The notes: generated by a model not told the origin, from the sequence alone. A stretch of 61,794 bases of DNA from Candidatus Daviesbacteria bacterium (GCA_021731695.1 JAKFWZ010000070.1:1-61794), one strand, 5' to 3'. Counted from the stretch's first letter, positions 179 through 61,716 are shown. Numbers and translations: made by a program.

Positions 179-883
179 ATGAAGTCGAAGTGGTTCCACT
201 TGAAAGAGATGGTGTCAAACGAAAGACGAATGGGAATGTCTCTGCGAGATGCAAGTAAAAAGTACGGAATACCATCTTCAACTTTAAGCGGATGGTTTAA
301 AAATGTATCGATTGAAGAAAAACATAAAACAAAATTAAGAAATAATTGGATTAAAGGTCTTATTAAGGCCAGAAACAAGGCTGTAGTTTCGAATAACTTG
401 CAGAAACAAAAGCGGTTAATGTTGGCTGAAAAGGAAGCTTTGTTTGCTCTTGCTGGAATTGATACAAGTCAAAAATACATTATTGAACTAGCATTAGCTT
501 TGCTTTACCTGGGGGAAGGGTTTAAAACACAGAATGGTACGGGAATGGGCAGTTCAGATCCTTTAATTCTAAGGTTTTTTGTGTTTGCCCTGATTGAAAT
601 TTACAAAGTTGAAATTGCTTCAATTAAATGCAGTTTGCATCTCAGGGCTGATCAGGATCCCGATAAAATGCAATATTACTGGGCTAATGAATTGAATTTA
701 CCCCTAAGTAATTTTACTAAATCCAGTGTTGATCTAAGGACTAAGGGTAGACCTACTTATCCGACTTACAATGGAGTTTGTGTGGTTCAATGTGGTAATA
801 TTTCAATTCAGCGAAAGTTAGTATACTTAAGCCGGATTTTTTGTGAGCGAGCGGTTAGCTCAGCTGGTAGAGCGCCTACTTGA
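179..883 (+). CDS. HTH + degenerate LAGLIDADG-like putative endonuclease, 3' end overlapping tRNA-Val
   Basis: N-terminal HTH-like segment (SLRDASKKYGIPSSTLSGWF) and LAGLIDADG-like helix LALALLYLGEG; TGA stop lies in the tRNA anticodon loop. Confidence 0.6.
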   Translation: MKSKWFHLKEMVSNERRMGMSLRDASKKYGIPSSTLSGWFKNVSIEEKHKTKLRNNWIKGLIKARNKAVVSNNLQKQKRLMLAEKEALFALAGIDTSQKYIIELALALLYLGEGFKTQNGTGMGSSDPLILRFFVFALIEIYKVEIASIKCSLHLRADQDPDKMQYYWANELNLPLSNFTKSSVDLRTKGRPTYPTYNGVCVVQCGNISIQRKLVYLSRIFCERAVSSAGRAPT

Positions 884-923
884 CGTGTAGGAGGTTTCAC
901 AGGTTCGAGCCCTGTACCGCTCA
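849..923 (+). tRNA. tRNA-Val(GAC)
   Basis: Acceptor gagcggt/accgctc, D-arm gctcagctggtagagc, anticodon arm cctac-ttGACgt-gtagg, T-arm acagg-ttcgagc-cctgt; variable region is 7 nt (aggtttc). Confidence 0.93.
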
Positions 924-942
924 CATATTACGAGTTGCTTAG

Positions 943-978
943 CTCCGCGGAGAAAAGTGTATTATCCCCTCGAGTCAC
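943..978 (+). repeat. Orphan att-like scar: hairpin + gtgtatt + tRNA-3'-end-like atcccctcgagtcac
   Basis: Same gtgtatt(a/g)tcc junction as the scars at 3592, 10299 and 12161, but the following sequence matches no tRNA in the window. Confidence 0.6.
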
Positions 979-982
979 AAGA

Positions 983-2758: not shown

Positions 2759-3013
2759 ATGCAGTTTACAACATCAGTAACTCAAAAGGGGCAGGCTACG
2801 ATCCCTGCAGCTATCCGTAAAGTTTTAGGCATAAAAACAAATACTAAAATTGTCTTTGAGCTTAAAAATAAAAACGAGGCTGTAATCAGACCTGTCACGG
2901 ATTTCTTTTCCCTAAAAGGCTCTGTTAAAACGGATAAACCGTTTGATTTAAGTGCCATGGAAAAAGCCATAGGCGATGACATTGTTAAAAAATATGTCAA
3001 AAAATCTTCTTGA
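2759..3013 (+). CDS. AbrB/MazE/SpoVT-family antitoxin
   Basis: TSVTQKGQATIPAAIRKVLGIK..TKIVFE signature; overlaps the downstream PIN gene. Confidence 0.88.
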   Translation: MQFTTSVTQKGQATIPAAIRKVLGIKTNTKIVFELKNKNEAVIRPVTDFFSLKGSVKTDKPFDLSAMEKAIGDDIVKKYVKKSS

Positions 3014-3386
3014 CACTAATTTAATTATCCGTTTCCTGGTTAATGATGATTCCGAAAAAGTTAAAAAAGTCGAGGATCTGCTAAGGAATACAGATAATAC
3101 GAACATATTGCCTGACACAATTATTGCAGAGATAATTTGGGTTTTGAGTTCCTACTATTACCTTCAGAAATCTGAAATTACCGAAAAAATTAAAGCCTTA
3201 ATTCATGTGGAGTCTGTAGATTGCAACGCGGTACTGATTAATAAAGCGCTTTCGTTGTGGGAGGAGAATAATATTTCCTATGTAGATTCATATCTGGCTG
3301 CTATAGCTGAGCTTGGAAACATTACTCTTTTGTCGTATGATCGTAATTTGAAATCTGTAAGTTCAATTACAGTGAGAGAGCCGTAA
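2994..3386 (+). CDS. PIN-domain (VapC-like) toxin
   Basis: LLDTNLIIRFL, IIAEIIWVL, SYVDSYLAA, LLSYDR; start moved to ATG 2994. Confidence 0.88.
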   Translation: MSKNLLDTNLIIRFLVNDDSEKVKKVEDLLRNTDNTNILPDTIIAEIIWVLSSYYYLQKSEITEKIKALIHVESVDCNAVLINKALSLWEENNISYVDSYLAAIAELGNITLLSYDRNLKSVSSITVREP

Positions 3387-3405: not shown

Positions 3406-3486
3406 GCCCGAGTGGTGAAATGGTATACACGATAGATTTAGGATCTATTGCCGCAAGGCGTGGAGGTTCAAGTCCTCTCTCGGGCA
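3406..3486 (+). tRNA. tRNA-Leu(TAG)
   Basis: gcccgag/ctcgggc acceptor, ataga-ttTAGga-tctat, long variable arm gccgcaaggc, T-arm. Confidence 0.95.
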
Positions 3487-3616
3487 CAAGTTTTGGGTTC
3501 TGCACTTTGTGCAGGTTCCAAAAATTTTGACGGAGCATGAGGCTTTAATCAAATCTATGATTTGGTTCAGCTTCCCGCCTTGGCGGGATGAGTGTATTGT
3601 CCTCTCTCGGGCACAA
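3472..3616 (+). mobile_element. tRNA-3'-duplicating mini-element, copy 1 (18-nt direct repeat, 127-bp period)
   Basis: gtcctctctcgggcacaa at 3472-3489 and 3599-3616; conserved core tttaatcaaatctatgatttggttcagc-hairpin-gtgtatt. Confidence 0.8.
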
Positions 3617-4411
3617 TCAACTGAATCTTTTAACAGCAGAGGCATGAGCTTTGTTTTCCAGTTCATCATCTAATGCCTTTAATTCAATCTCTTTACCATA
3701 TTTAACCTCTAAAGCTTTTTTAATTAACCAATCAGCTAATTCAGGATTCTTTGGCAAAAGTGAGCCGTGCATATAGCAGCCGATTGCATTCTTATATATA
3801 CAGCCTTCGGTTCTGTCCTCGCCATTATTTCCAAATCCTTTTATCAGTTTGCCTAAAGGTTTTGCACCCTGTCTGCCGGCCGGCAGGCCTTCATTAAGAA
3901 AAGTGCGGCCGGAATGGTTTTCGAAACCCACTAAAAGGTTATGAGTTATGGGAGCTGGGTTATGTGAATTATTTTTACTCATAACTCCTAACTCATCACT
4001 CATAACTTTGATTACAATATTCCCAATCATTCTCTCCTCCGATGCATTTGTGTATGCAGGGAAGATTCCAACACCTTTTAATTTTTCGCCTTCCTCAGGT
4101 GCGTAATAATCGCCTAATAGCTGATATCCGCCGCAGATTGATAAAAGCGGAACTCCTCTTTCAATTTCTTCTTTTAAAATAGGGCCTTTTTTAATTAAGT
4201 CTTTGGCTACTGCAATTTGGGATTCATCCTGCCCCCCGCCAAAGAAATACAAATCTGCATCACCTTTTTTAAACCCTGATCCAACTGAAATCTGTTTTAA
4301 TTCTACTTCAATTCCCCGCCACTCACTTCGTTTTTGCAGCGCAATAATATTCCCGGTGTCCCCGTAAATATTCATTAAATCGCCGTATAAATAGCCGATT
4401 GTTAGTTTCAT
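3617..4411 (-). CDS. gatD: GatD, CobQ-like glutamine amidotransferase (peptidoglycan amidation); carries two in-frame repeat insertions
   Basis: LYGDLMNIYGDTGN, ICGGYQLLG, GFENHSG, YMHGSLLPKNP; immediately downstream of murT. Confidence 0.92.
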   Translation of the reverse strand: MKLTIGYLYGDLMNIYGDTGNIIALQKRSEWRGIEVELKQISVGSGFKKGDADLYFFGGGQDESQIAVAKDLIKKGPILKEEIERGVPLLSICGGYQLLGDYYAPEEGEKLKGVGIFPAYTNASEERMIGNIVIKVMSDELGVMSKNNSHNPAPITHNLLVGFENHSGRTFLNEGLPAGRQGAKPLGKLIKGFGNNGEDRTEGCIYKNAIGCYMHGSLLPKNPELADWLIKKALEVKYGKEIELKALDDELENKAHASAVKRFS

Positions 4412-4423
4412 AGCTTGTTTTTC

Positions 4424-4506
4424 GTCATTGCGATATCGCGAAGCGAAGAAGCAATCTCAGTAAGCTCTGGGATTGCCGCGTCGGCCCAAGGTCTCCTCGC
4501 AATGAC
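4424..4506. repeat. REP-like inverted element (gtcattgcg...gcaatc / gattgc...cgcaatgac)
   Basis: Terminal gtcattgcg/cgcaatgac inverted repeats; same family as 23583, 23946 and 25830. Confidence 0.8.
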
Positions 4507-4508
4507 GC

Positions 4509-5792
4509 TCATTCCTTCCAGTATTCCTTCTTAACTCCTTTTTTAACTAAGATCTTTTGTAATTCTAAAAGCGCAGTGTACGTTGGTAATATAAATAGTC
4601 TGCCTTTTGTTGATTTAACAGCTTTATCGAATACCTGTTCAATATCAGATTCGATTGCCGGAACCGGAAAATCAGCATATTTAAGTCTTAGAGCCATATC
4701 AAGCGATCGTGTCCCTGACACGTAAAGCTGATAGCTGTGGGCCCCCGAAGGGGAAGATGGCTGATAGCTTTCAAATGGAATATCCCAAATCCATGAAACA
4801 TCTTTTCCGTCTGCAAAATTATCGTTTAAAGCAAGTATCAGTGAATCCTGCGGAGTTAAAGCGGGCATAACAGTTTGCATAACCTGAGTTGCTCCAACCG
4901 GATTTTTAATTAAGAAAATATAACCTTCCTTCCCGTTAAGTAAAAACTTTTCGCTTCTGCCGAAAGATGAACTTAAATCTTTAAGGCTCCCGGCCTGGGA
5001 TTCATTTAAGTTGCCTATCAGATACTTTGCAGCTAAGGCCGCGGTTGCATTACAGACATTGTAATCACCGGGAATTGATATAGAAACCGGAGTATTGAAT
5101 TTGTCTGCTATGAAATGAAAGTCCGAATCTGAAAATGTAGTTTTTAAATCGACTGCTTTAAAATCTGCTTTTCTTATGCCTGAAGACTTTTTCTCTCCCG
5201 GAATAGTGAGTCCTTCGACAGTAAAATTATAAGTTTCTTTACCTGTTTTCGCTAAAGAATTTAAACTCCCGTCATCAGTATTTATAAGTAGTTTAGTTTT
5301 ATCCGGAAGCTTTTTTAGAGTGTTTAACCACTTATTAACTATCGAATCAACTTCACCATAACGATCAAGCTGATCTCTGTAAACATTCAGCAGGATTATT
5401 AAATCGGGCTTTATTTTAGGGGCAAGAGTATTAAATGCAGCCTCATCAACCTCCCAAATTGCCACCTGTTCCTTAATTTTTCCGTTTAATGAGGCATGTT
5501 TAATTAGAACAGAAGCAATCCCCCTTTCTAAATTTGACCCCGTTTTATTTCTTATTACCTCGATTCCTTCTGATTTGTATAGTTGAGCGAGCATTCCCGA
5601 GGTAGTAGTTTTACCATTTGTACCTGTAATAATAATTTGTTTTGGAATTTGAGACGAGAGACCCTGAATCAGATTGGAATCAACTTTTAGCGCATAAAGA
5701 CCTGAAGCCGCGAATCCTCCGCCTAATTTAAGTGTTCGCGAAAGAAAGAATGTCAATTTGCCTAAAAAAATAGCTGCGATGGTTTTGAACAT
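4509..5792 (-). CDS. murT: MurT, Mur ligase-like subunit with DUF1727 C-terminal domain
   Basis: ITGTNGKTTT P-loop, EVDEA, RDQLDRYGE, LIKNPVG, ADGKDVSWIWD, PTYTALL. Confidence 0.93.
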   Translation of the reverse strand: MFKTIAAIFLGKLTFFLSRTLKLGGGFAASGLYALKVDSNLIQGLSSQIPKQIIITGTNGKTTTSGMLAQLYKSEGIEVIRNKTGSNLERGIASVLIKHASLNGKIKEQVAIWEVDEAAFNTLAPKIKPDLIILLNVYRDQLDRYGEVDSIVNKWLNTLKKLPDKTKLLINTDDGSLNSLAKTGKETYNFTVEGLTIPGEKKSSGIRKADFKAVDLKTTFSDSDFHFIADKFNTPVSISIPGDYNVCNATAALAAKYLIGNLNESQAGSLKDLSSSFGRSEKFLLNGKEGYIFLIKNPVGATQVMQTVMPALTPQDSLILALNDNFADGKDVSWIWDIPFESYQPSSPSGAHSYQLYVSGTRSLDMALRLKYADFPVPAIESDIEQVFDKAVKSTKGRLFILPTYTALLELQKILVKKGVKKEYWKE

Positions 5793-5826
5793 GCAGCATA
5801 ATTATAACCTCAATAGAGCTCAATTG

Positions 5827-6495
5827 TTAATTTAATATATCAATTCTAAACGTATGATTTACGTTCGCAAGAGTTGCCTTAAGATTTCTTGTTTCAGGCA
5901 AATCAGATGTAAGCTCAGTATTAACAAGCTCAAGTTCAGCAAGTTCAACGTCAAACGGATAGTTAGCTGCATATTTTTCAATATCGTTCATAAAGAAGTT
6001 AACATGAGTTCCCCAAGTTTTAGATGAGGCATATTTTTTGTTCATCGAAAAAGGCTCCGTATAACCTTTATCTACGTAATTTTCTTTAAGTCCTTTTGAG
6101 ATTGTAAAAATAGCTTCTCTCCATGATTTAAATTTCAAAACATTATCTCCGTAAACTCCCCATCCCCAACCGTTGTATGAAGTGTATAAAGGATCATGTC
6201 CTCCAGGAATAGCTTTACCGAAAGTAGATTCAGTACCGGCAATAGACGCAACAAGTCTCCAGTCAAGTTCGTACTGGTCTGCCGCATCAATAAAGTCTTG
6301 TGCGTTATTTTCTAAAGGTGAATTATGTTTGGCTAAATAATCCTTTAAGATAAGAACTCTTTTATCGACAGGTTTAGCCTCTATTGTCATCAACTGCTCA
6401 TCAGCAGCGTACACAGGTTTGACCCCTGTTATTAATGTAGGAAGGGCTAATTGAGAAAGGACTAAAAGACCCAAAAGTATTTTTTGAAGTTTCAT
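5827..6495 (-). CDS. Secreted glucosaminidase/lysozyme-like cell-wall hydrolase
   Basis: Signal peptide; DFIDAADQYELDWRLVASIAGTESTFGK and YNGWGWG motifs. Confidence 0.7.
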   Translation of the reverse strand: MKLQKILLGLLVLSQLALPTLITGVKPVYAADEQLMTIEAKPVDKRVLILKDYLAKHNSPLENNAQDFIDAADQYELDWRLVASIAGTESTFGKAIPGGHDPLYTSYNGWGWGVYGDNVLKFKSWREAIFTISKGLKENYVDKGYTEPFSMNKKYASSKTWGTHVNFFMNDIEKYAANYPFDVELAELELVNTELTSDLPETRNLKATLANVNHTFRIDILN

Positions 6496-6670
6496 AATTG
6501 TTTTTCTGTTAACAAGCTGTGTTTATGACTTTGCAAGCTTTGCTTATGAACAGAATCTCGAAGCTTTGGGTTAATCTCCAAGATTGAATTGAATAGTATA
6601 TACTATGAGCCTTAATTTGTCAAATAATTAGGGCGTAGCTAATCCTAGAAGATGGCTTTTAGGGCTAAAC

Positions 6671-7951
6671 TTATTCTTTCCTTGAAGGTTTGAGTTTAAG
6701 TATCCGTTCCCAGCTAATCTTAGGAAAATTAGGACTTTCAAGCAGTGACAAATGTATTCCCCTTGGTTCAGAGAATTTTGAGCTGACTTTTGGTCCTTCT
6801 AGAAGTCTCTGAAGTACACTTTCATACCACTTTCTAAAATCCTCAGCGTCATCCTCTGGAACTGTGTTAAATGCATCTTGAGCCATTGACATAAATTCTT
6901 CAGGATCAATATACTGTGGGTCTCTAAGTTGCACTGGGGTTAATGGGTTGGTAAATATTCTTCTAAGCTTCCTTTGCCGATCTTCCAGCCTTTCTATGAT
7001 GACATCGTTTGAGTACACTGCAGTTCTAATTGCGTCTTTTCCGTATCCTTCTTCTGCTACGATACCGAATCCGTTTTCTCTAATAACACTTGGTATTTTT
7101 CGCTTGTCATCAGCTTGATGATATAGTTGTGCTAGTTCGTCAACCTTCTTCTGTGAAAAACCTTTATCTCTAAGGTACCCTAATACACTTACTACTTCAT
7201 CCGGGCTAGGAAAAAACGAAAAATCGCGTTGATCACGGACCCAAAATTTATCTAGGACGAATAGATAGTAAACTCTACCTTCAAAATACACAGTGATGCC
7301 GCCTTTATCGTAGGGACCACCCTCATTGTGCTCTCTTATGTATTCTTTTTTATATGGATTTGGTTCAGTTATTGTTACGAATGGCAGCCTGAGTCTCTCG
7401 GCATGACCTTTAAAGAGTTGAGCAAGGTCTTCATCAAGGAAATCTTTGGTTTCTGTTGTTTTAGCAAAGAATCCCGCCAGTTCTAATCTTGAGGTGCCGG
7501 CACTACCGTAGGCTATAATTTCATTATAAGAGCCTCTTCCGGTTTGACGTAATATATCTTCAGGAGCTGGAACACTCATATTTTGCGCCTGGCGAATTAA
7601 TAAATTTCTATTGTATAGATGAGCACCAATGTCATGGTTTGATCCCATTAATAAATTAGCAGAAGGAACTCCAACTATAAGGCCAGCCTGACCCCAGGTT
7701 CCAGTGTGATTTTGGTCTATAAGGGACATTGATAGAGCAATTCTTCCAGATAATCCCTCCGGAGATTGTGATAAATTTATACTCTGATCGCCCTCTAGCG
7801 ACTTAGTTATTTCAGATCTTATTTGCTCTTGTGCTGCGAGTGTGTTCATATGCACTCTGGATGCTGGATTTATAGCATGTACTAGGTATCTGAAATTTTG
7901 AGTGTCATGCTGATCAGGATTAGTCGTAGAACCCCAATTTGTTTCTTTCAT
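6671..7951 (-). CDS. Hypothetical protein (orphan)
   Basis: Long ORF; TATAAT 7 nt upstream of ATG 7951. Confidence 0.7.
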   Translation of the reverse strand: MKETNWGSTTNPDQHDTQNFRYLVHAINPASRVHMNTLAAQEQIRSEITKSLEGDQSINLSQSPEGLSGRIALSMSLIDQNHTGTWGQAGLIVGVPSANLLMGSNHDIGAHLYNRNLLIRQAQNMSVPAPEDILRQTGRGSYNEIIAYGSAGTSRLELAGFFAKTTETKDFLDEDLAQLFKGHAERLRLPFVTITEPNPYKKEYIREHNEGGPYDKGGITVYFEGRVYYLFVLDKFWVRDQRDFSFFPSPDEVVSVLGYLRDKGFSQKKVDELAQLYHQADDKRKIPSVIRENGFGIVAEEGYGKDAIRTAVYSNDVIIERLEDRQRKLRRIFTNPLTPVQLRDPQYIDPEEFMSMAQDAFNTVPEDDAEDFRKWYESVLQRLLEGPKVSSKFSEPRGIHLSLLESPNFPKISWERILKLKPSRKE

Positions 7952-8011
7952 GATCAAGATTATAGCAAAAATTTACGTATAATACAAACTATAGGTTAAT
8001 TGCGAATTACG

Positions 8012-9016
8012 TTAAATTTTAAGAAGAGTTTGGGCTAGTACTTCAGGGTCATGTCTTAAAAGATGTTCTTTTGGTGAATATTTTGCCAGGTTGGCTTTTA
8101 TAATCTTGGCATTAGAAGCTATTTTTTTAATCTCAGCTTCATCTAGTTTAACCTGCATCTGTCCTTCTTTGGCATACAGCTTTTCGATATCTGAATCAAT
8201 TGAATCCGCATTCGCCACAATATAATCAATTCGATTACCGTCACCGAGATAAAACGAAAGAGCCTTTATAAAATCGGAAGCTTTAAAAGAATCAGTTTCA
8301 CCCCTCTTGGTCATTAAATTTAAAACAAAAATTAATTTAGCTTTTGAAGAATTGATAGCTTCGGCAACTCCGTTCACTAAAAGATGAGGCAATATAGAAG
8401 TATAAAGGTCTCCTGCAGAAAGAACAATTTTATCAGCTTGGGCAATTTCTTCTAAAGCTTTAGGATTTGCATCAGCCTGAGAATCAAAATAGATCCTTGA
8501 AATCTTATCTTTTGGTTTAAATTCCTCTCCTTCGCCACGAGTATCGATAAGAGTTTCGCCTTCAATAACGTTTCCGTCAACAGTTTTAGCGCATAGCTCC
8601 AAATCTGATAAAGACACCGGAACGACCTGACCCCTGACTCTAAATAATGCACGGGCTGCATCTAATCCTCTGTCGGCTCCCTGATATAAAAGTTGTAATT
8701 GGGACTGAATAAGATTTCCTAAAGCATGCCCCTTTAGAGGGCCGTCTACTTCTTTAAACCTTTCATTAAATAATCTTTGGGCGACCTGACGCTGGGCATC
8801 ATCTTCCATTAAAGCCAGTAAGCACTGTCTCGTATCTCCCGGAGGTAAAACTCCCATTTCAACCCTAAGTCTTCCTGAGCTTCCGCCAGAATCCCAGGTT
8901 CCGGTTATCGCAATAATAAGTTCAGGATTGTTTTCATCGACTAAACCACGAAGTAAAGAATAGTGTCCAGTCCCCCCGCCAAGTGTGACTATTTTCTGAT
9001 CAGTTTTGCTCATCAT
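8012..9016 (-). CDS. yvcK: YvcK/GlmR-family UDP-GlcNAc-binding protein (CofD-like)
   Basis: IVTLGGGTG, DSGGSSGRLR, PPGDTRQCL, GHALGNL, NLMTKRGET; start trimmed so it does not overlap tRNA-Leu. Confidence 0.9.
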   Translation of the reverse strand: MMSKTDQKIVTLGGGTGHYSLLRGLVDENNPELIIAITGTWDSGGSSGRLRVEMGVLPPGDTRQCLLALMEDDAQRQVAQRLFNERFKEVDGPLKGHALGNLIQSQLQLLYQGADRGLDAARALFRVRGQVVPVSLSDLELCAKTVDGNVIEGETLIDTRGEGEEFKPKDKISRIYFDSQADANPKALEEIAQADKIVLSAGDLYTSILPHLLVNGVAEAINSSKAKLIFVLNLMTKRGETDSFKASDFIKALSFYLGDGNRIDYIVANADSIDSDIEKLYAKEGQMQVKLDEAEIKKIASNAKIIKANLAKYSPKEHLLRHDPEVLAQTLLKI

Positions 9017-9090
9017 TCCCACTAAAGATACCACAATACCGCAAGAGTGGGAAATAAAAGATTTTTGGGGTAGAATTGGATAACTTCTTC

Positions 9091-9173
9091 GCCCCGGTGC
9101 TGGAATGGTAGACAGGCTAGCCTCAGAAGTTAGTGCCAGCAATGGCGTGGGAGTTCAAATCTCCCCCGGGGTA
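9091..9173 (+). tRNA. tRNA-Leu(CAG)
   Basis: gccccgg acceptor, ctagc-ctCAGaa-gttag, long variable arm, T-arm. Confidence 0.95.
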
Positions 9174-9215
9174 CAAGATTGACTTTCGGTAAAACTTTGG
9201 ATATGTTAACTTAGC

Positions 9216-9878
9216 ATGGGGATAAGCATTAGGTGGAGTGCTAAGTTAGCTTATGTAGTAGGTCTTATTGCCTCTGATGGGTGCTTATCAAATGATAGAA
9301 GACATATTGATTTTACCTCTAAGGATTTGGAACAAGTACAAACCTTCGCCAGATTATTAAAACTAAATAACAAAATTGGAACAAAAGGAATAAGCAGGAA
9401 AGATGGTCAACTTTACTATAGAATAGAGTTTGGAAATGTTAATTTCTATAGATTTCTATTAAAAATAGGATTAACTCCAAATAAATCGAAAACAATAGGT
9501 ATACTTTTAATTCCGGATAAATATTTTATTGATTTTTTAAGAGGCTCTTTTGACGGTGATGGACATTCTTACTCTTATTGGGATCCCAGATGGAAAAGTA
9601 GTTTTCAGCTATATATTGGATTTTCATCAGCCAGTCTTAAGCACATTGAGTGGTTACAGTCTAAAATTGAGAGTTTATATAACCTGAGGGGAAATGTTAA
9701 AAAAGGAAATCGCTCATTCCAGCTTGAGTTTGCAAAATACTCTTCGCTTCTTTTAATTGAAAAAATTTACTATAAAAAAGGTCTACCATTTCTTACAAGA
9801 AAGCACTCGAAAATTACAGCTGCATTAAGTATAATATCGACCAGTAAGCGGACGTGGCGGAATGGTATACGCGTATGA
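9216..9878 (+). CDS. Free-standing double-motif LAGLIDADG endonuclease
   Basis: AYVVGLIASDG and FLRGSFDGDG motifs; lies between two tRNA-Leu genes with its stop inside the second. Confidence 0.88.
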   Translation: MGISIRWSAKLAYVVGLIASDGCLSNDRRHIDFTSKDLEQVQTFARLLKLNNKIGTKGISRKDGQLYYRIEFGNVNFYRFLLKIGLTPNKSKTIGILLIPDKYFIDFLRGSFDGDGHSYSYWDPRWKSSFQLYIGFSSASLKHIEWLQSKIESLYNLRGNVKKGNRSFQLEFAKYSSLLLIEKIYYKKGLPFLTRKHSKITAALSIISTSKRTWRNGIRV

Positions 9879-9928
9879 TTGAGGTTCATATGCCGCAAGG
9901 CGTGGAGGTTCAAGTCCTCTCGTCCGCA
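9848..9928 (+). tRNA. tRNA-Leu(GAG)
   Basis: gcggacg/cgtccgc, tatga-ttGAGgt-tcata, variable arm gccgcaaggc. Confidence 0.95.
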
Positions 9929-10096
9929 CAGTTTAGGTTATAATACAAATGGCTTAGGGTTAAGATAGTAAAACACTGAAGTCCAGTGAACTTCTAACTT
10001 ACTGTTCAGTCGAAGTCGTTTAGACTTCGAAAACAGGGCACTTTAGATAGTTATACGCGAAGCGGAACTATCGCAAGGGCCCCGAGCGCAGCGAAG

Positions 10097-10169
10097 GGGC
10101 ACTTAGCTCAGTTGGTAGAGCGCTTCGTTTACACCGAAGATGTCAGGGGTTCGAGTCCCTTAGTGCCCA
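10097..10169 (+). tRNA. tRNA-Val(TAC)
   Basis: gggcact/agtgccc, cttcg-ttTACac-cgaag, T-arm. Confidence 0.96.
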
Positions 10170-10323
10170 CATTAAAAAGAGGCTATCTTTAGATAGACTT
10201 TTTTAAATTGGTTTTGGTAGGGAGCGAATTAAATCTTTGAAGACCGTAGGTCGCAAGCTCTGCTTATTTGGTTCGGCTTTTTCTTTCTAAGAAAATGGGT
10301 GTATTGTCCCTTAGTGCCCACAT
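10155..10323 (+). mobile_element. tRNA-3'-duplicating mini-element, copy 2 (18-nt repeat, 151-bp period including a ~26-nt nested insert)
   Basis: gtcccttagtgcccacat at 10155-10172 and 10306-10323; core aaatctttga[insert]tttggttcggc-hairpin-gtgtatt. Confidence 0.8.
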
Positions 10324-10347
10324 AAAAGAAAGTAAAAAAAGGTGATT

Positions 10348-10827
10348 TTATCGAAATCTTCTTAACTGCTGGAATTGCGCACTTAATGCTTCATTTGTTA
10401 AATATGCCCCATAGGTACCAGAAGGATTTAACGGTTGATTTCGTGATTCATCTCTAATCTTTGTCTGTTCATCTTGGGGCAAAGAACTAAATTGACTTTG
10501 TTGAAATCTGATTACTTCACCTAGGTTGGATAGTCTTGAAATATCAGGAACAGAAGCGCTTGGTTTTGTATATGTAAAAATAGTATGCCCCGCAGCGTCT
10601 GTCCACTGTCTTAGTACCCGGGTGTTTTCTGGGTTAATGTCAATTTGTCCGGCAGCATTCCGGTTAACAACAACACATGTTTCTTGAAGCTTGTAGCCAG
10701 CTTCTTTCTCACGCAGCGCCTTCATTTGTTCATCAAATTCTGCTTGACGAACAGCACGTCGAGCTTTTATTCCTGCCAATACCTCAGGAGGTAGGTTTTT
10801 TAATTCGTCTAAAGGGTCCCGATCCAT
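10348..10827 (-). CDS. Hypothetical protein (orphan)
   Basis: 159-aa ORF with upstream -10-like element. Confidence 0.7.
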   Translation of the reverse strand: MDRDPLDELKNLPPEVLAGIKARRAVRQAEFDEQMKALREKEAGYKLQETCVVVNRNAAGQIDINPENTRVLRQWTDAAGHTIFTYTKPSASVPDISRLSNLGEVIRFQQSQFSSLPQDEQTKIRDESRNQPLNPSGTYGAYLTNEALSAQFQQLRRFR

Positions 10828-10913
10828 GAGAGAATTATATCATATTATAGGTTATAAATGAATTTAATACCCATTGATTTGACTAAATTTTATTAATAAG
10901 ATTAATTGAAGTT

Positions 10914-11120
10914 ATGGACTCAATATTAAAAATTCTCGCACTTTATGGTTTGGTCTTTTTGCTTTTGACTTTAACTGCAAATTTTCTCTGGAGAGCTTTT
11001 CCTAAAATAAAAGGAGACATTTATCTACAAAATACCGGAATTGATTTCTATATTCCCTGTACATCTTCGGTAATTATTACAGTCATCATCACAATGCTCT
11101 TCTTCAATTACTTCAAGTAA
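10914..11120 (+). CDS. DUF2905-family small membrane protein
   Basis: Two TM helices with KGDIYLQNTGIDFYIPCTSSVII pattern. Confidence 0.65.
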   Translation: MDSILKILALYGLVFLLLTLTANFLWRAFPKIKGDIYLQNTGIDFYIPCTSSVIITVIITMLFFNYFK

Positions 11121-11178
11121 GCTTTTTGTCTAAAGAACTTATTTAAGTTTCGATAATTAAGCTGCTATTATAAAATGA

Positions 11179-11655
11179 GTGAATATTAAAAAATGCTCCA
11201 TGTGCGGTGAAGTAAAAAGTGTTTCGGAGTTTTACCAAAGAAGAAAACATCGTAGCGGAGAGTATTACGAAAAATGTAAAGATTGTTCTAAGACGCGGGG
11301 TAGAAATTATTACCACCAAAACCATGAGCGTCAACTACGACTGGCTTTACTCAGAAAAGATAGATATAAAGAGGAACGAAGAAAATGGCTTGAAAAAATA
11401 AAGGATAGACCTTGTATTGATTGTGGTGTAAAATACCCTCCATATATCATGGATTTTGATCATAAAGATGGTGTGGTCAAAATCGCAAGTATTTCCTGGT
11501 TGGCATTGCATAATACATCCAACCTTGAAGTGATTAAATTAGAGATAGCAAAGTGCGAATTGGTTTGTGCTAATTGTCATAGACAGAGAACGCACGACAG
11601 ATTAAAAAAAATTAAATCAGCCGCAGTAGCCAAGGTGGTCAAGGCAGGTGTTTGA
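11179..11655 (+). CDS. HNH endonuclease with N-terminal Zn finger, 3' end overlapping tRNA-Phe
   Basis: CSMC..CKDC, PCIDCG, DFDHKD, CELVCANCHRQRT. Confidence 0.85.
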   Translation: MNIKKCSMCGEVKSVSEFYQRRKHRSGEYYEKCKDCSKTRGRNYYHQNHERQLRLALLRKDRYKEERRKWLEKIKDRPCIDCGVKYPPYIMDFDHKDGVVKIASISWLALHNTSNLEVIKLEIAKCELVCANCHRQRTHDRLKKIKSAAVAKVVKAGV

Positions 11656-11692
11656 AGAACATCCTATTTCAGTTCGACTCTGGACTGCGGCA
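11620..11692 (+). tRNA. tRNA-Phe(GAA)
   Basis: gccgcag/ctgcggc, ggtgt-ttGAAga-acatc, ttcag-ttcgact-ctgga. Confidence 0.9.
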
Positions 11693-11732
11693 CACTTCAC
11701 TTCGTTCAGTGTAAACCCTGAAGAAGTGGTTT

Positions 11733-11981
11733 TTGTATATTTTGACAAGAATCGATGATAGTTTTTACACAGGAATTACATCGAATCTTGAAAGAAGGGT
11801 AAAAGAACATAACGAAGGTAAGAGTTTATCGACTAAAGGAAAGCTTCCGGTTAGTTTAGTTTATTGGGAAAGTTTTCCAGATAAATATAAAGCTGCTCGG
11901 TATTTTGCAAGAATAAAAGGATGGAGTAGGTTAAAGAAGCAGAATTTAATCAGTAAGTTTACATTGAGTCAGCTAAGCTGA
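11733..11981 (+). CDS. GIY-YIG nuclease (small, UPF0213-like); start uncertain
   Basis: YIL...FYTGITSNLERRVKEHN; preceded in frame by aag-tgg-ttt where ATG-TGG-TTT would be expected. Confidence 0.75.
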   Translation: MYILTRIDDSFYTGITSNLERRVKEHNEGKSLSTKGKLPVSLVYWESFPDKYKAARYFARIKGWSRLKKQNLISKFTLSQLS

Positions 11982-11987
11982 CGAAAT

Positions 11988-12059
11988 GCGGGAGTAACTC
12001 AGTGGTAGAGTGCCTCGTTGCCAACGAGGATGTCGAGGGTTCAAATCCCTTCTCCCGCT
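11988..12059 (+). tRNA. tRNA-Gly(GCC)
   Basis: gcgggag/ctcccgc, cctcg-ttGCCaa-cgagg, T-arm. Confidence 0.96.
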
Positions 12060-12184
12060 CTTAAAGAAAAAGTCGACCCTTGTGGTCGATCTTTTTGTTT
12101 AAAGGGAGGGTTGGGATTTTAATCAAATCTTTGATTTGGTTCAGCCTCGCGAAGCGAGTCGTGTATTATCCCTTCTCCCGCTCT
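12045..12184 (+). mobile_element. tRNA-3'-duplicating mini-element, copy 3 (17-nt repeat, 123-bp period)
   Basis: atcccttctcccgctct at 12045-12061 and 12168-12184; core tttaatcaaatctttgatttggttcagc-hairpin-gtgtatt. Confidence 0.8.
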
Positions 12185-12189
12185 CAACT

Positions 12190-12915
12190 TTAAGCAGTTC
12201 TGAAAAAAAATTTTCTGTTTTTCCAATAATCTCTGTCTACCTCTCCGGCCTTAAGATCTGCAAAATACCTCTCATCCATTCTTCCATCAGACCAATTTGC
12301 ATAGTCTCTTTTTAGGACTTTCACTTTTTCTCTTAAAATAGGATTATTACCAAATGGAGATTTGTAGCCGCGGTAAACCATTAACTCTTCTGCCACCGTC
12401 GCTCTATCATCTAAGAATGTGTGCCGACCATAAACTTCTGCATATCCTGAGCAATTAACTTTACTAAGTTGTCTAGAATTTAAATCCCAATAAGCATCTC
12501 CTAAATAAGGTAATAAAGGATTATTTAGTTCTTTCCATTGGGCAATTCCTCTGTCAGATAAAGCACCCGGTTGTTGATCAGCTCTGTGCAATATTTCGTG
12601 ATGAACTATGCGAGGCCTTACCATATCAAAATATATTGGCCCATTACTAAATGCCAGTCCTGCTACCGAAATCCATCGTTCTCCGATTCTGTGTTCTATA
12701 TCATTTGCTATGAGTAACTGAGAAATATTGCAATCACGGATAAACTCAGGCGGGTAGACTTTTAATGCATCTCTGAATTCAGATACATCTTCAGCAGCAT
12801 ACTCTATAAGATCTTTTAGAGGTTCAAGCTTAACAGTCTTGGGTACTTCTACTAACCTTGGAGAAACTCTTACAGTCAATCCATACTCCTTTTTTAATCC
12901 TCTTAAATCTTTCAA
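12190..12915 (-). CDS. Putative zinc metallopeptidase (HExxH); N-terminus possibly cut by an in-frame TAA
   Basis: HHEILHRAD and YAEVYG..FLDDRATVAE resemble the putative zinc-binding metallopeptidase family; upstream in-frame ATG at 12993 followed by TAA at codon 6. Confidence 0.6.
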   Translation of the reverse strand: MKDLRGLKKEYGLTVRVSPRLVEVPKTVKLEPLKDLIEYAAEDVSEFRDALKVYPPEFIRDCNISQLLIANDIEHRIGERWISVAGLAFSNGPIYFDMVRPRIVHHEILHRADQQPGALSDRGIAQWKELNNPLLPYLGDAYWDLNSRQLSKVNCSGYAEVYGRHTFLDDRATVAEELMVYRGYKSPFGNNPILREKVKVLKRDYANWSDGRMDERYFADLKAGEVDRDYWKNRKFFFRTA

Positions 12916-23639: not shown

Positions 23640-23933
23640 TTAAACAATATCCGGATATAAGTCTTTAACTTTAGGGTTAAATTTCAAAATTATCTCTTCC
23701 TTTCTTTTTCTAGAGTAGTTTTTAATCTGTTTTTCTCTTTCAATTGCATTTTCTGGATCTTCAAAAGCTTCAAAATACACTAAATCATGAACTTTAAACT
23801 TTTTAGTAAAACTCTCATCCTCATTTTGTTTATGTTGCCAGACTCTTTTTATTAAGTTACTTGTTATCCCAGTATAAACAACAGTTCTGCTGTGATTGCT
23901 CAAAATGTAAACATAATACTGTTTACTGGACAT
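23640..23933 (-). CDS. GIY-YIG nuclease flanked by REP-like repeats
   Basis: YYVYIL...VVYTGITSNLIKRVWQHK...AIEREKQIK. Confidence 0.92.
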   Translation of the reverse strand: MSSKQYYVYILSNHSRTVVYTGITSNLIKRVWQHKQNEDESFTKKFKVHDLVYFEAFEDPENAIEREKQIKNYSRKRKEEIILKFNPKVKDLYPDIV

Positions 23934-49096: not shown

Positions 49097-50628
49097 ATGG
49101 ATGAGCCTGAGATAGATATTACAAAGTTAAAGTATGTTTTATATGCCCGTAAAAGTACAACAGATGAGACAAGGCAGGTCCGGTCAATAGGAGATCAAAT
49201 AGATGACTGTCAAAGATTAGCTATAAGACTGGGACTAAAGATTGTGGATACTCTACGAGAGACAAAATCAGCCAAAAAACCAGGCGAAAGACCTATCTTT
49301 ACAAGATGCTATCGGATATAAATAAGGGTGTTTATGACGCAATTCTGGCATGGAACCCAGACCGATTAGCTAGGAATATGCTTGAGGGCGGAAGACTACT
49401 AGATATGATAGATCAGGAACAAATTAAGGATCTAAAATTTGTCACTCATTATTTCACTAAGGATGCTAATGGAAAAATGCTCTTAGGAATGGCATTTGTT
49501 CTAAGTAAACAATACAGTGATGATTTGTCTCAAAAAGTAACTAGGGGTGTAAGAAAGAGTTTTGCTGAAGGAAAATCCCCTATACCTAAACACGGCTACC
49601 TAAATGAGAAAGGAATCTATACTCCTGATGGTAAGAATTTTGAACTTATCTGCGATGCTTGGAAAATGAGGTTAGTTGGGGACTCGTTACAGGAAATAAC
49701 AGATCATCTTAATAGTAACGGTTATTCAAGAATAGTCAAAAAGGATGGTCGGGAAATTGATATGGACACAAAGATACTTACAGATCTCTTCAAAGACCCC
49801 TTTTATTATGGTGTTTTGATTCAGGCAAGGCAGACAGTAGATCTAAGGGATTTATATTCCTTTGAACCCGCTGTATCTGAAGAGGATTACAATCAAATCC
49901 AGGCACAATCAACCCAGAGATCAAAACCCTTAAACACAAATAGAAGGCTAACTTTTTACCCACTTAAAGCGATGGTTAAGTGCTCATTTTGTCATCACAA
50001 TATGGTTGTTGGCCCATCTACCAGTAAAGGAGGAAAGAAGCTATTGTATTACCGGTGTGATAATAAAAACTGCTCCCGTAAGAAAAAATCCATCAGAGCT
50101 AAAATAATATTTAGTTGGATATATCAATTCTTAGAGAATAATTTTAGCCTTACCGAGGAAGACTACGGCAAATACTACGATCACCTAACCTTTTTAAACG
50201 ATTCCTCGCGGCAAAAACTAAAAATAGAGATACATAGTAAACAAGGAAGTCTGAAAAAGATCTCAAGTGAAATGAAGGAATTAGGCTTGCAGGTGGTCAA
50301 AGAGAAGAATCAAGTAGCTAAGGAGGTTGGCGGTAATAAACTAACAGAACTGAAATCTCAAAAAGAAGAATTGGAAAAAGCTCTAAAAACACTTGAGGGT
50401 CAGCTGACAGACCCTGAAAAAACTAAGCTAAGTCTGGAAGAGTTCTTGAACTTTTCTAAGGAAGCTGCTGTAAGAGTCCAAGCTGGTGGTCCTGAACAGA
50501 AGGATATTATTTGTCGTCAAGTATTCTTGAACTTTGTTGTGGATGAAGAGAAAGTATTGTCATACCAGCTTAAACCTGTGTTCAAGAGTATGATAAAAAC
50601 CCGTAATAACCCATCTGGTCGGGGATAA
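49097..50628 (+). pseudogene. Large serine recombinase split by a 1-nt frameshift near 49303
   Basis: YARKSTTDE..Q..S...Q, DRLARN, recombinase domain, CSFC..YYRC Zn ribbon, coiled coil; RPIFT/KMLSD join needs one extra A (tttacaagatg); stop lies within tRNA-Pro. Confidence 0.85.
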
Positions 50629-50691
50629 AGGACTTGAACCTTCGACCTCACGCTCCCAAAGCGCGCGCTCTACCAGCTGAGCTAATCCCCG
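50616..50691 (-). tRNA. tRNA-Pro(TGG), CCA encoded
   Basis: cggggat/atccccg, cgcgc-ttTGGga-gcgtg, T-arm. Confidence 0.96.
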
Positions 50692-50699
50692 AAAACTTG

Positions 50700-50781
50700 T
50701 GCCGCGGGTGGGACTCGAACCCACAAGGCCTAGGGCCATTGGATTTTAAGTCCAACGTGTATACCATTCCACCACTGCGGC
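50700..50781 (-). tRNA. tRNA-Leu(TAA)
   Basis: gccgcag acceptor (one mismatch), ttgga-ctTAAaa-tccaa, long variable arm. Confidence 0.93.
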
Positions 50782-54989: not shown

Positions 54990-55211
54990 ATGCAAAGAAG
55001 TATTATAAATTTATCAGTCCCCAAACAAACCGAACTGGAGATATCCCTGATTGCAAAAGAAGAGAATAAAACTAAAAGCGAAATTTTAAGAGATGCCTTC
55101 CGAGTTTATCAACTTCGCAGAAAATGGGCTAGAATAAGGACAATCGGTGAAGAAACTGCAAGAAGAATGGGTATAGAATCATATGATGATGTTGAAAAAA
55201 TAGCCGGCTAA
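54990..55211 (+). CDS. Ribbon-helix-helix antitoxin
   Basis: IINLSVPKQ...IAKEENKTKSEILRDAF. Confidence 0.8.
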   Translation: MQRSIINLSVPKQTELEISLIAKEENKTKSEILRDAFRVYQLRRKWARIRTIGEETARRMGIESYDDVEKIAG

Positions 55212-55636
55212 TGCGTATAGTTCTGGACACTAATGTTTTAATTGCCGCCGCCTTAAGAGGCGGTTTTTCGGAAGATATTTTAACTGCCCTAGTAACTATA
55301 GAGACAGTTTCATTAACCATTTCACATGATATTGTTGAAGAATTATCTCAAAAATTAGAGGATAAATTTAATTGGTCTAAATCTGACATCAATCTATTTA
55401 TTGAATATATTAGCCTGATAAGCCAAAAGGTTGAGATAAGAGAAAAGGTAGCAGTTGTAAAAAGAGATCCAGATGATAATAAAATTTTGGAATGTGCAAT
55501 TGCCAGCAATGCAGATTTAATAGTCAGCATTGATCAAGACCTAATAGATTTAAAAGAATTTCGGGGTATTGGAATAATTCATCCAAAAACACTAACCTGG
55601 ACATTTCCTGAGTACTTTAAAAAATTAAAGAAATGA
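55211..55636 (+). CDS. PIN-family toxin
   Basis: MRIVLDTNVLIAA; RDPDDNKILECAIASNADLIVSIDQDL. Confidence 0.92.
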   Translation: MRIVLDTNVLIAAALRGGFSEDILTALVTIETVSLTISHDIVEELSQKLEDKFNWSKSDINLFIEYISLISQKVEIREKVAVVKRDPDDNKILECAIASNADLIVSIDQDLIDLKEFRGIGIIHPKTLTWTFPEYFKKLKK

Positions 55637-60597: not shown

Positions 60598-60760
60598 TTA
60601 ACTCACCTCCAAACTACACTTCTCCTCCAGTATGAACGATATTTCTCAATCAATGCAAGATCTAAAATCCCCTAGCAAAATCACATACGGATATTAATTT
60701 CTCAAGTAAAAAGCACTCGTAGACTTCTGTAATAAGCTAAACTTTATACTATTTCTCTCT

Positions 60761-60787
60761 GAGCGGGTGACGCAAATTGTTTTGAAC
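60761..60787 (-). repeat. att-like scar of tRNA-Gly(TCC) 3' end
   Basis: gagcgggtga equals 61644-61653; arm similar to 54796-54822. Confidence 0.7.
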
Positions 60788-60869
60788 CCCTACTTAATTG
60801 CATCATAATTGAGTTTAGCAAGTTAGAACAAGCTTATACATCGTTTGAACAAGACTGAGAATTGGAATA

Positions 60870-61496
60870 TTAAATAGAGAATCGCGATGGTGTGGAGTAA
60901 TTAGTTACAGTTTTCCAAACACTAGAATAATCGGACAGACTTAAATCTTTTAGTATTACTGAATTCTCAGGTTTTAATCCCAGAGCTTCTGCGGTTCCCC
61001 GGCTGTAATTTTCTACACACACTTCTAGATATTCACCATATGAAGCTTGCGTGGTCTGATTTGGATCATATTGAATATTCCTATCTGTTAATAACGGTCT
61101 TAAATCTGACGCTTGAATATAAAATTTCCAAGGTAAGAGTATTAGTCTATCTCCAAACATTTTTTCTAATCTTTTAATTCGTTGTTCGTCAGCTAGAAAC
61201 GCTAAATCATCAGCGGCAGATGCATTCCTTTTCAAATTCTTAAAAGGAGGACGTCCAATTAGATATGATGAGTAGTAAATTAACGCATTGTCAGGAGTTA
61301 ACGCCAAACACCCTAATCTTCTAAAACGACTTTGTTCTCTTTGCTCAAACAAAGGATCTTCGGGTCCATCTTCATCATTATAAGATCTATTAAAGTCTAA
61401 GTGAATGATGGTATCAAAATGCTTAATTTCAGACATATTCACTGAGAGTTTACCAAAATAGAGTAAGGATAACAACCTATAGTGAAGTATTGCCAT
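60870..61496 (-). CDS. Hypothetical protein (orphan) between tRNA-Gly and its scar
   Basis: 208-aa ORF; start uncertain. Confidence 0.6.
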   Translation of the reverse strand: MAILHYRLLSLLYFGKLSVNMSEIKHFDTIIHLDFNRSYNDEDGPEDPLFEQREQSRFRRLGCLALTPDNALIYYSSYLIGRPPFKNLKRNASAADDLAFLADEQRIKRLEKMFGDRLILLPWKFYIQASDLRPLLTDRNIQYDPNQTTQASYGEYLEVCVENYSRGTAEALGLKPENSVILKDLSLSDYSSVWKTVTNYSTPSRFSI

Positions 61497-61644
61497 GTGA
61501 AATTGGAAAATGCAAGTTTGTCTTGGGGTTCGAGTCCCCTCAACCTTTTTGAATTTTAGGCACGAATTATTTTAAAATTAAAAATTACATTGAACTCTTT
61601 TTTTGAAGCTAAAAAGTGCTTATTTTTAATAGCGCCCCGTCAGG

Positions 61645-61716
61645 AGCGGGTGAGGGGGATCGAACCCCTTACGTTCACTTTGGAAAAGTGACATTCTACC
61701 GATGAATTACACCCGC
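61645..61716 (-). tRNA. tRNA-Gly(TCC)
   Basis: gcgggtg/cacccgc, tcact-ttTCCaa-agtga, T-arm. Confidence 0.93.

Follow-up and report, generated by a model that had tools for sequence, protein, structure and literature searches.

A previously undescribed family of structured mini-inserts at the T-loops of tRNA genes in Candidatus Daviesbacteria

Introduction

Transfer RNA (tRNA) genes are classic landing sites of mobile DNA, and the known users of these sites are kilobase-scale elements that bring their own integrase and are each specific to one tRNA. Direct repeats of 17-22 bp of a tRNA 3' end are the classic attL/attR signature of such integrations. In islands and prophages whose tyrosine integrases act at the T-loop (the P4-like sublocation), the repeat runs from the T-loop to the 3' end, the tRNA is regenerated, and the displaced end comes to lie beside the native flank. 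The same features are seen in the subject of this report, a stretch of 61,794 nucleotides from a Candidatus Daviesbacteria bacterium (GCA_021731695.1, JAKFWZ010000070.1:1-61794; hereafter the window), in which the genes for tRNA-Leu(tag), tRNA-Val(tac) and tRNA-Gly(gcc) are each followed by a small non-coding unit that ends in a second copy of the tRNA's own 3' end. However, these units are ~105 bp long and carry neither integrase nor cargo, one conserved arm serves nine tRNAs, a third, inverted core copy is present, and inverted core-type binding sites are not evident. I tentatively interpret them, with a probability of roughly 40%, as non-autonomous, structure-dependent insertion elements of tRNA-gene T-loops in Ca. 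Daviesbacteria.

Cis-mobilizable elements (CIMEs) are att-flanked remnants of integrative and conjugative or integrative and mobilizable elements that lack recombination genes (PMC5704250, PMC7563491). The units resemble CIMEs in their attL- and attR-like repeat boundaries, in having no recombinase of their own and in the trans mobilisation proposed for them, but CIMEs are kilobase-scale decay products with a recognisable parent at the same site, whereas the units have a fixed length of ~125 bp and no parent in the collections searched. Palindromic bacterial repeats such as Correia/NEMIS, ERIC (127 bp) and RUP, which are similar to miniature inverted-repeat transposable elements (MITEs), can fold when transcribed and frequently serve as terminators or processing sites. 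They share with the units a length of 100-150 bp, a lack of coding sequence, long imperfect palindromes and several copies per genome. In MITEs, however, the terminal inverted repeats are fixed and are shared with a parent insertion sequence, and the target is duplicated over 2-9 bp; in the units the inverted arms copy the target tRNA and are thus tRNA-specific, the duplication measures 17-22 bp at one tRNA position, and no insertion-sequence-like gene was found.

Results

The window contains 11 tRNA genes (ARAGORN and Rfam), and the three named above carry a complete unit (Table 1). In each, the last 15-16 nt of the tRNA and 2-3 trailer nucleotides, starting at T-loop position 59, recur downstream, and a 17-18-mer that recurs within 300 nt is no chance event. 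These copies and their periods had been noticed in an earlier reading of the sequence alone (the sequence-only reading), and they are indeed exact. The same reading had described one layout between the copies, which is common to all three units: a terminator-like hairpin (hairpin 0), the core, a small variable hairpin (hairpin 2) and GTGTATT fused to the repeat. It had also noted a nested insert in the Val(tac) unit; this is ~25 nt long, lies in the loop of hairpin 1 and brings the corrected period to 125 bp. Two exact occurrences of the 28-nt core TTTAATCAAATCTWTGATTTGGTTCAGC are present in the window, where shuffled sequence would lead one to expect none. The distal copies lie, as was likewise claimed, within 25 nt of the stop codons of convergent open reading frames (ORFs), which stand 0 (Leu), 24 (Val) and 5 nt (Gly) past them. 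The three ORFs are mutually unrelated: one encodes a GatD-like amidotransferase of the GatD/MurT pair and two are unassigned. A fourth, truncated unit, which follows tRNA-Val(gac), had been overlooked. Its terminal ATCCCCTCGAGTCACA is the 3' end of another tRNA-Val(gac) allele (of the L025 type; L numbers designate loci outside the window), unlike the gene now upstream of it.

A pattern scan of one genome per species gave 20 hits, about the number expected by chance, with the full architecture in 4 of the 20, and a metagenome scan added one further organism. A search with a covariance model built from eight copies then yielded 11 full copies, scoring 39-89 bits, at nine different tRNAs, and one copy that has no tRNA; I refer to these as family A. 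All 12 covariance-model hits end in a tRNA-like 3' end and 11 of them follow the matching tRNA, and so the sequence family is tied to tRNA 3'-end duplications, with one conserved core at nine tRNAs and arms specific to each, much as the sequence-only reading had proposed. Throughout the family the repeats, exact over 17-22 nt, start at T-loop position 59 (±1) and end 1-7 nt beyond the discriminator. The conserved period seen in the window holds in the larger sample as well, at 119-128 bp in 10 units (Val(tac) being counted as 125 bp after subtraction of its nested insert).

This tight length conservation is at odds with one origin suggested at first, namely that integrase-borne tRNA islands or prophages have collapsed to their ends. 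The repeats do match the attL/attR signature, and a possible cargo-bearing analogue exists at tRNA-Gly(tcc) (see below), but independent deletions would not leave the same length and architecture in 10 units, integrase remnants are lacking, and the structure is under selection. I regard collapsed islands as extremely unlikely.

The spread of family A is uneven: some genomes have several copies at different tRNAs and others have none. All members belong to Ca. Daviesbacteria/Microgenomates; for the window this assignment comes from the homologues of its GatD-like protein. The titles of three loci (L001, L005 and L006; metagenome-assembled genome (MAG) prefixes CAYOSW01 and CAYMTV01) read 'uncultured Gammaproteobacteria' and would imply spread across phyla, but PolX of L005 bears the annotation Ca. 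Daviesbacteria and has its relatives in Daviesbacteria, so that I take this title to be a mislabel; L001 and L006, from another MAG than L005, are probably mislabelled in the same way. With these titles set aside, the family is lineage-specific. No member was found in IMG/VR (2.9 million viral contigs) or in phage and plasmid collections. A phage-borne attP was also considered, but the 18-mer gives 18 hits in IMG/VR that score at most 24 bits and are due to chance, some of them lying within coding sequence.

Table 1. Positions of the units, their parts, neighbouring genes and copies at other loci.
Feature	Locus	Position	Strand	Remarks
ORF, 234 aa	Window	179-883	+	HTH_psq domain
tRNA-Val(gac)	Window	849-924		
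Truncated fourth unit	Window	943-979	+	hairpin 943-952, then AAAAGTGTATT, then ATCCCCTCGAGTCACA; 3' of tRNA-Val(gac)
MazE-like antitoxin and PIN-domain toxin	Window	2759-3386	+	
tRNA-Leu(tag)	Window	3406-3487	+	ARAGORN, Rfam
Leu(tag) exact repeat GTCCTCTCTCGGGCACAA	Window	3472-3489 (proximal), 3599-3616 (distal)	+	period 127 bp; proximal copy is last 16 nt of tRNA plus 2 trailer nt, distal copy is tRNA positions 59-73 plus 3 nt
Unit 1 (Leu(tag)) hairpin 0	Window	3490-3528	+	terminator-like imperfect hairpin, then T-run; sequence differs between units
Unit 1 left arm	Window	3529-3544	+	G-rich imperfect inverted copy of tRNA 3' end; pairs with proximal or distal copy
Unit 1 core	Window	3544-3571	+	hairpin 1 aatcaaatc-tat-gatttggtt (3547-3567), then CAGC
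Unit 1 hairpin 2	Window	3572-3589	+	sequence variable between units, stem covaries
Unit 1 junction motif GAGTGTATT	Window	3590-3598	+	replaces T-stem 5' strand and T-loop up to position 58
Convergent ORF, GatD-like	Window	3617-4411		stop codon abutted by Leu(tag) distal copy
LAGLIDADG homing-endonuclease-like gene	Window	9216-9878	+	
Structured leader of tRNA-Val	Window	10025-10096	+	
tRNA-Val(tac)	Window	10097-10170	+	ARAGORN, Rfam
Val(tac) exact repeat GTCCCTTAGTGCCCACAT	Window	10155-10172 (proximal), 10306-10323 (distal)	+	period 151 bp
Unit 2 (Val(tac)) hairpin 0	Window	10174-10205	+	with A and T runs
Unit 2 left arm	Window	~10210-10224	+	
Unit 2 core	Window	10226-10277	+	nested insert ~10241-10265 in hairpin 1 loop; then TTCGGC
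Unit 2 hairpin 2	Window	10279-10295	+	
Unit 2 junction motif GGGTGTATT	Window	10297-10305	+	
Convergent ORF	Window	10348-10827		after Val(tac) unit
GIY-YIG ORF, 82 aa	Window	11733-11981	+	
tRNA-Gly(gcc)	Window	11988-12060	+	ARAGORN, Rfam
Gly(gcc) exact repeat ATCCCTTCTCCCGCTCT	Window	12045-12061 (proximal), 12168-12184 (distal)	+	period 123 bp
Unit 3 (Gly(gcc)) hairpin 0 and left arm	Window	12065-12117	+	stem-loop 12072-12090; left arm 12102-12117
Unit 3 core	Window	12118-12145	+	hairpin 1 12121-12141, then CAGC
Unit 3 hairpin 2	Window	12146-12158	+	ctcgc-gaa-gcgag
Unit 3 junction motif TCGTGTATT	Window	12159-12167	+	
Convergent ORF	Window	12190-12915		after Gly(gcc) unit
GIY-YIG ORF, 97 aa	Window	23640-23933	-	
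Large serine recombinase	Window	49097-50628	+	PHROG 95
Empty site Leu(taa)/Pro(tgg)	Window	50616-50781	-	tRNAs 7 nt apart; pair split by family-A unit in L022
Second PIN gene	Window	55211-55636		
tRNA-Gly(tcc) region	Window	60760-61716	-	ORF 60870-61496; degraded tRNA copy ~60760-60795
Lone tRNA 3' fragment GGGGTTCGAGTCCCCTCAACC	Window	61520-61547	+	
Full copy, Ser(cga)	L001			
Full copy, Asp(gtc)	L005			
Full copy, Lys(ttt)	L006			
Full copy, second in locus	L006			no intact tRNA upstream
Full copy, Cys(gca)	L015			identical to L021, L023
Full copy, Leu(taa)	L022			
Full copies, Val(tac) and Gly(gcc)	L033			
Degenerate copy, Leu(tag)	L033			
Degenerate copy, Gly(gcc)	L027			
Degenerate copy, Gly(gcc)	L032			
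Other insert type, tRNA-Gln and tRNA-Phe	L027	4185-4340, 6744-6845		ACAGGATC-hairpin-GTAGCCCT
Other insert type, tRNA-Pro	L022	7620-7740		GGTTCAAC...GGTTGTT
Nested tRNA	L026	7440-7660		
Nested tRNA	L052	10931-11085		L053 likewise
Nested tRNA	L015	3000-3300		

The conserved part of a unit consists of hairpin 1, TTCRGC, hairpin 2 and the motif given as GGGTGTATT for unit 2. Hairpin 1 belongs to a 22-nt core that is fixed in sequence, with two positions that alternate between U.G and C.G and so pair on the tRNA-sense strand only. The two core subtypes, TTCAGC and TTCGGC, can be found together in one genome. Hairpin 2 has a sequence unique to each copy and its pairing is always kept, with changes on both sides in 6 of 7 pairs and 94% of cells paired, and a covariation that none of 500 shuffles equalled. 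Between hairpins 0 and 1 stands the left arm, a third copy of the tRNA end, inverted and imperfect, which makes the order direct, inverted, direct. Neither this inverted copy nor the covariation had been recognised in the sequence-only reading. Each left arm is matched to its own tRNA, as cognate pairing exceeds non-cognate pairing (permutation p=0.00045). Furthermore, tRNA positions 59-76, the trailer, hairpin 0 and the left arm form a single palindrome of 70-79 nt in 10 of the 10 units tested; its outer end is again position 59, and it is specific to family A (p=1.3e-4 against 68 other tRNAs). In an alternative pairing, found in 7 of 11 minimum-energy folds, the left arm joins the distal copy and closes a three-way junction around hairpins 1 and 2. 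The stem-loop of unit 3 within hairpin 0 is predicted as a terminator on both strands. I also considered whether every unit holds a homologue of the tRNA 5' acceptor strand, and thus a full tRNA-like gene, but the position of the partner is inconsistent and the sequences are of low complexity, and only the cognate-pairing statistic is retained. Covariation, a tRNA-specific inverted arm and conserved length together show selection on a folded single strand.

The recurrence of position 59 bears on a retro-element-like origin. Retroviral plus-strand synthesis on a tRNA primer stops at m1A58, giving an 18-nt primer-binding site, and by analogy a terminated pre-tRNA might snap back at its terminator hairpin, be copied by a reverse transcriptase that halts at modified A58, and have its product integrated. 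Direct and inverted copies both end at position 59 (±1), and the geometry of A-run, hairpin and T-run would permit self-priming. But this leaves the conserved core and the distal direct copy unexplained, and a reverse transcriptase was not found in the window. Nor do the copies fit the primer-binding site of a retroelement, which consists of 18 nt complementary to tRNA positions 59-76 including CCA: the exact copy is sense-oriented and carries genomic trailer nucleotides instead of CCA, and only the imperfect left arm is antisense. I consider a retro-origin very unlikely.

Relatives of the window were obtained through the synteny of GatD and PolX. The sequence-only reading had called for empty sites in such relatives, and clean ones exist; at many sites the same tRNAs occur without a unit. 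In L059, CTTATTTCCCCTCTTGACA... directly follows tRNA-Asp, and L005 has the homologous flank after the distal copy. Val(tac) and Leu(tag) stand without a unit in L025, L027, L030-L032, L052 and L056, and the window itself has an empty site at Leu(taa)/Pro(tgg). Hairpin 0 is missing at empty sites; it therefore belongs to the insert and arrives with the unit. The Gly(gcc) unit is ancestral to four genomes (the window, L033, L027 and L032), all of which have the downstream flank in common; between the window and L027 the likeness extends to hairpin 0 and the hairpin-2 stem. The window and L033 retain an intact core of this unit, that of L027 has degenerated and that of L032 is truncated. The distal copy tracks the tRNA allele, both for Gly (CCCTT in the window and L033 versus CCCGT in L027 and L032) and for Val (GT-CCCTT versus GA-CCCTC), while mismatches that it does not track occur in L006, L015 and the Val unit of L033. 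Such long vertical persistence with decay had also gone unnoticed in the sequence-only reading. Synteny between the window and L033 downstream of Val(tac) was considered too and rejected because the flanking ORFs are unrelated.

Since covariation and long-term persistence with decay show that a single-strand structure is under selection, a serious rival to an insertion element, and the main one, if on the whole doubtful, is an RNA: the tRNA 3' trailer would contain a structured non-coding RNA that is made either together with the tRNA or by read-through. The left arm and the distal copy would close a three-way junction that mimics the acceptor/T-stem helix of the neighbouring tRNA, with a role in termination, in processing by RNase P, Z or III, or as a decoy of the tRNA 3' end; the duplication would mark the origin of the RNA and no mobility would be involved. 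An RNA explains the full covariation of hairpin 2 beside a fixed 22-nt core and fixed junction strands, and the vertical persistence of the Gly(gcc) unit, as well as the reading that I favour does. It would also account for the U.G pairs of hairpin 1 on the tRNA-sense strand, for the closing helix of the minimum-energy folds, and for a length that is kept though the first halves have no recognisable common sequence. In L006 the arm pairs over 14 bp and three of three differences from the tRNA's own 5' strand keep the pairing; the second L006 copy, alone and without a tRNA, has a closing helix of its own. The units of L001 and L022 lie inside tRNA operons and therefore must be transcribed.

Other evidence speaks against an RNA. 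In Rfam 15 only tRNAs reach the gathering threshold, and over the module nothing appears at E<=10 except weak, probably chance matches, which disposes of known ribozymes and riboswitches. No promoter is predicted for the module, and hairpin 0 would halt most transcription derived from the tRNA. The unit is present at some tRNAs and in some genomes only, and is decaying or absent in close relatives; it is therefore dispensable. Sequence identity reaches into the trailer nucleotides, which a mimic of the tRNA would not need. Finally, the + strand folds better than its complement in 10 of 10 units (p=0.002), but I rejected this asymmetry as proof of an RNA, as the shuffle control (p=0.16) shows it to be mostly a matter of G+T composition.

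A comparison with further classes of element again gives partial likeness. IS200/IS605-type elements have subterminal hairpins that are conserved in sequence at both ends, do not duplicate their target, and include a TnpA or TnpB gene in the family. In the units only the internal hairpin 1 is conserved in sequence, which fits neither the IS200/IS605 palindromes nor a TnpB omega-RNA, a duplication is present, and TnpA or TnpB domains gave no hit in the window. I likewise rejected the idea that the units guide a TnpB- or Cas12-like nuclease for which TTCRA of the T-loop would be the adjacent motif: the proximal tRNA, being intact, would present a perfect target, and a nuclease gene of this kind is lacking. 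Integron attC sites are defined by R''/R' core sites (RYYYAAC, GTTRRRY) in an imperfect hairpin with IntI nearby. The units resemble attC and the attP(+) of CTX phage in having imperfect hairpins of variable sequence and kept structure that are strand-specific and tolerate mismatches. However, GTTRRRY is only approximated by GTTCRGC, which alone resembles R', a RYYYAAC partner and an integrase are lacking, the target is a tRNA gene, and no link to IntI or Xer is shown. As in the mobile endonuclease elements of fungal mitochondria (for example at atp6 of Allomyces), the insert gives a new 3' end and leaves the resident end downstream, but those elements encode their own endonuclease and target protein-coding genes, whereas the 105-bp interval contains no ORF. 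For every class tested at least one defining feature is absent; the family is previously undescribed.

Duplicated tRNA ends are also common outside family A. Across 17 Daviesbacteria loci, 15 of 78 tRNAs are followed downstream by a direct repeat of their 3' end that is 12 nt or longer, against 2 with an upstream copy, and there is no link to genomically encoded CCA (2/14 versus 13/64). Other insert types, again missed in the sequence-only reading, have the same T-loop boundary, at position 57-59, and the process is therefore general. Two such types (Table 1), one at tRNA-Gln and tRNA-Phe and one at tRNA-Pro, have a like architecture and a different sequence. Duplications of 5' ends at several loci stop in the D-loop, after G18 and G19. 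Older, degraded copies of two tRNAs (Leu-tag, Ile-gat) contain, in their anticodon loop, a complete gene for the tRNA in question, and in L026 and L015 the inner gene lies between inverted repeats of 10-13 bp.

The tRNA cluster of the window contains genes for nucleases. The LAGLIDADG homing-endonuclease-like gene (Pfam LAGLIDADG_3; PHROG endonuclease, 5.9e-28) has tRNA-Leu(cag) on one side and on the other tRNA-Leu(gag), into whose start it extends; the two tRNAs are spaced by 10-20 nt in L025 and L027, and L058 has a 60% identical LAGLIDADG gene at the same spot. Of two stand-alone ORFs with a GIY-YIG nuclease domain, one takes up the space from tRNA-Phe to tRNA-Gly(gcc), stopping 7 nt short of the latter. 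The units could thus be by-products of double-strand breaks and gene conversion by free-standing homing endonucleases of tRNA clusters, the copies having been made by fold-back repair or template switching at hairpins without any dedicated element. Both the LAGLIDADG and this GIY-YIG gene stand between tRNAs of one cluster, the position of the former is kept in L058, tRNA alleles are frequently replaced and leave fragments behind (the truncated fourth unit and the nested tRNAs of L026, L052 and L015), and breakpoints occur in all three tRNA loops. But random repair cannot give the same 22-nt core, order of parts and 125-bp length at nine tRNAs in several genomes, and no endonuclease gene lies inside or consistently beside a unit. 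I judge this origin to be decidedly unlikely.

Among the 60 ORFs of the window that were scanned against Pfam, none was recognised as a tyrosine integrase, a transposase or a reverse transcriptase. The window does encode a large serine recombinase, a phage-type integrase, which a frameshift splits into 74 + 440 aa and which is probably the remnant of an integrated element; its 3' end overlaps that of tRNA-Pro(tgg), and nearby genes encode Fic, DUF3644 and a 624-aa protein of unknown family. In the tRNA-Gly(tcc) region, an 870-bp interval with a 208-aa ORF is followed by a degraded copy of the tRNA T-arm and acceptor end (GGGGTTCAAA...TCACCCGCTC). The ORF is an orphan with one relative only and no family hit, and the interval may be a cargo-bearing analogue of the mini-inserts. 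A lone tRNA 3' fragment lies on the strand opposite to this tRNA.

Directly upstream of tRNA-Leu(tag) is a pair of genes for a MazE-like antitoxin and a PIN-domain (VapC-like) toxin, and the window has a second PIN gene elsewhere. The 234-aa ORF, which also has a weak match to an IS3-transposase N-terminus, runs into the 5' end of tRNA-Val(gac). Upstream of tRNA-Val a structured leader is conserved, which opens with a degenerate duplicate of the first 17-19 nt of the tRNA (GGGCACTTTAGATAGTT...) and continues with hairpins; it also occurs in L027 before Val(tac) and Val(gac) and in L025 before Val(tac).

Discussion

Clean empty and filled sites, a native flank that resumes after the distal copy, the fact that hairpin 0 comes packaged with the unit, the fixed boundary and the patchy multi-copy distribution argue for a discrete insert at T-loop position 58/59 that regenerates the tRNA. 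These features, together with the selection on a folded single strand, are why I favour a non-autonomous, structure-dependent insertion element. On this reading a miniature insert of ~105 bp (period ~125 bp) sits between positions 58 and 59 and supplies both a terminator-like hairpin and a new version of tRNA positions 59-76, so that the tRNA stays intact and its original 3' end is displaced downstream, still abutting the native flank. The conserved part and the inverted, imperfect copy of the tRNA end would fold into a single-strand structure, a putative cis-acting site for insertion, excision or conversion across the common 59-76 segment by an enzyme supplied in trans. Units last long and are kept in step with their own tRNA; they would decay where activity is lost, and could be deleted cleanly by recombination between the direct repeats.

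Several points weigh against such an element. The Gly(gcc) unit has been inherited vertically across four genomes, and thus its conservation could reflect selection by the host. A recent burst is ruled out by the copies within one genome, which share nothing outside the core and differ wholly in hairpins 0 and 2. The left half lacks sequence conservation, an unusual trait in a transposable element, and no known recombinase would accept the core sites of nine unrelated tRNAs. An integrase gene is found neither inside nor beside a unit, no recombinase, transposase or reverse transcriptase lies beside any of them, and the sole recombinase of the window adjoins tRNA-Pro, which has no unit. Finally, the integrase-bearing, cargo-bearing or otherwise autonomous relative of the core that the sequence-only reading had asked for was not found in the window, in 17 related loci or in the viral, phage and plasmid collections.

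A bolder version, which I think unlikely, is that each unit is a self-contained homing module of single-stranded DNA or RNA that recognises its target by base pairing. The inverted arm would pair with the 3' strand of the tRNA gene, the exact copy would serve as the crossover, arms would be swapped to retarget the core, and hairpin-templated conversion would keep all three copies matched. Such a module would be a new kind of programmable insertion system for tRNA genes and may ride on single-stranded DNA taken up by these bacteria. The ~125-bp circles and the retargetable recombinase of the sequence-only reading are conjecture.

At least nine tRNA genes have, at one and the same T-loop position, a 105-bp non-coding unit with one conserved core that rebuilds the tRNA and carries an antisense copy of its target. 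The interest of the unit lies in a single core that serves many tRNAs and carries sense and antisense target copies. If the units are mobile, they imply target recognition that is re-aimed by the exchange of short arms; if they are RNAs, they represent a new class of RNA in tRNA trailers, one that imitates the top half of the neighbouring tRNA. On either reading, the tRNA genes of these ultra-small bacteria turn over via insertions at all three tRNA loops, which bears on the annotation of tRNA loci and pseudo-tRNA fragments in MAGs of Patescibacteria.

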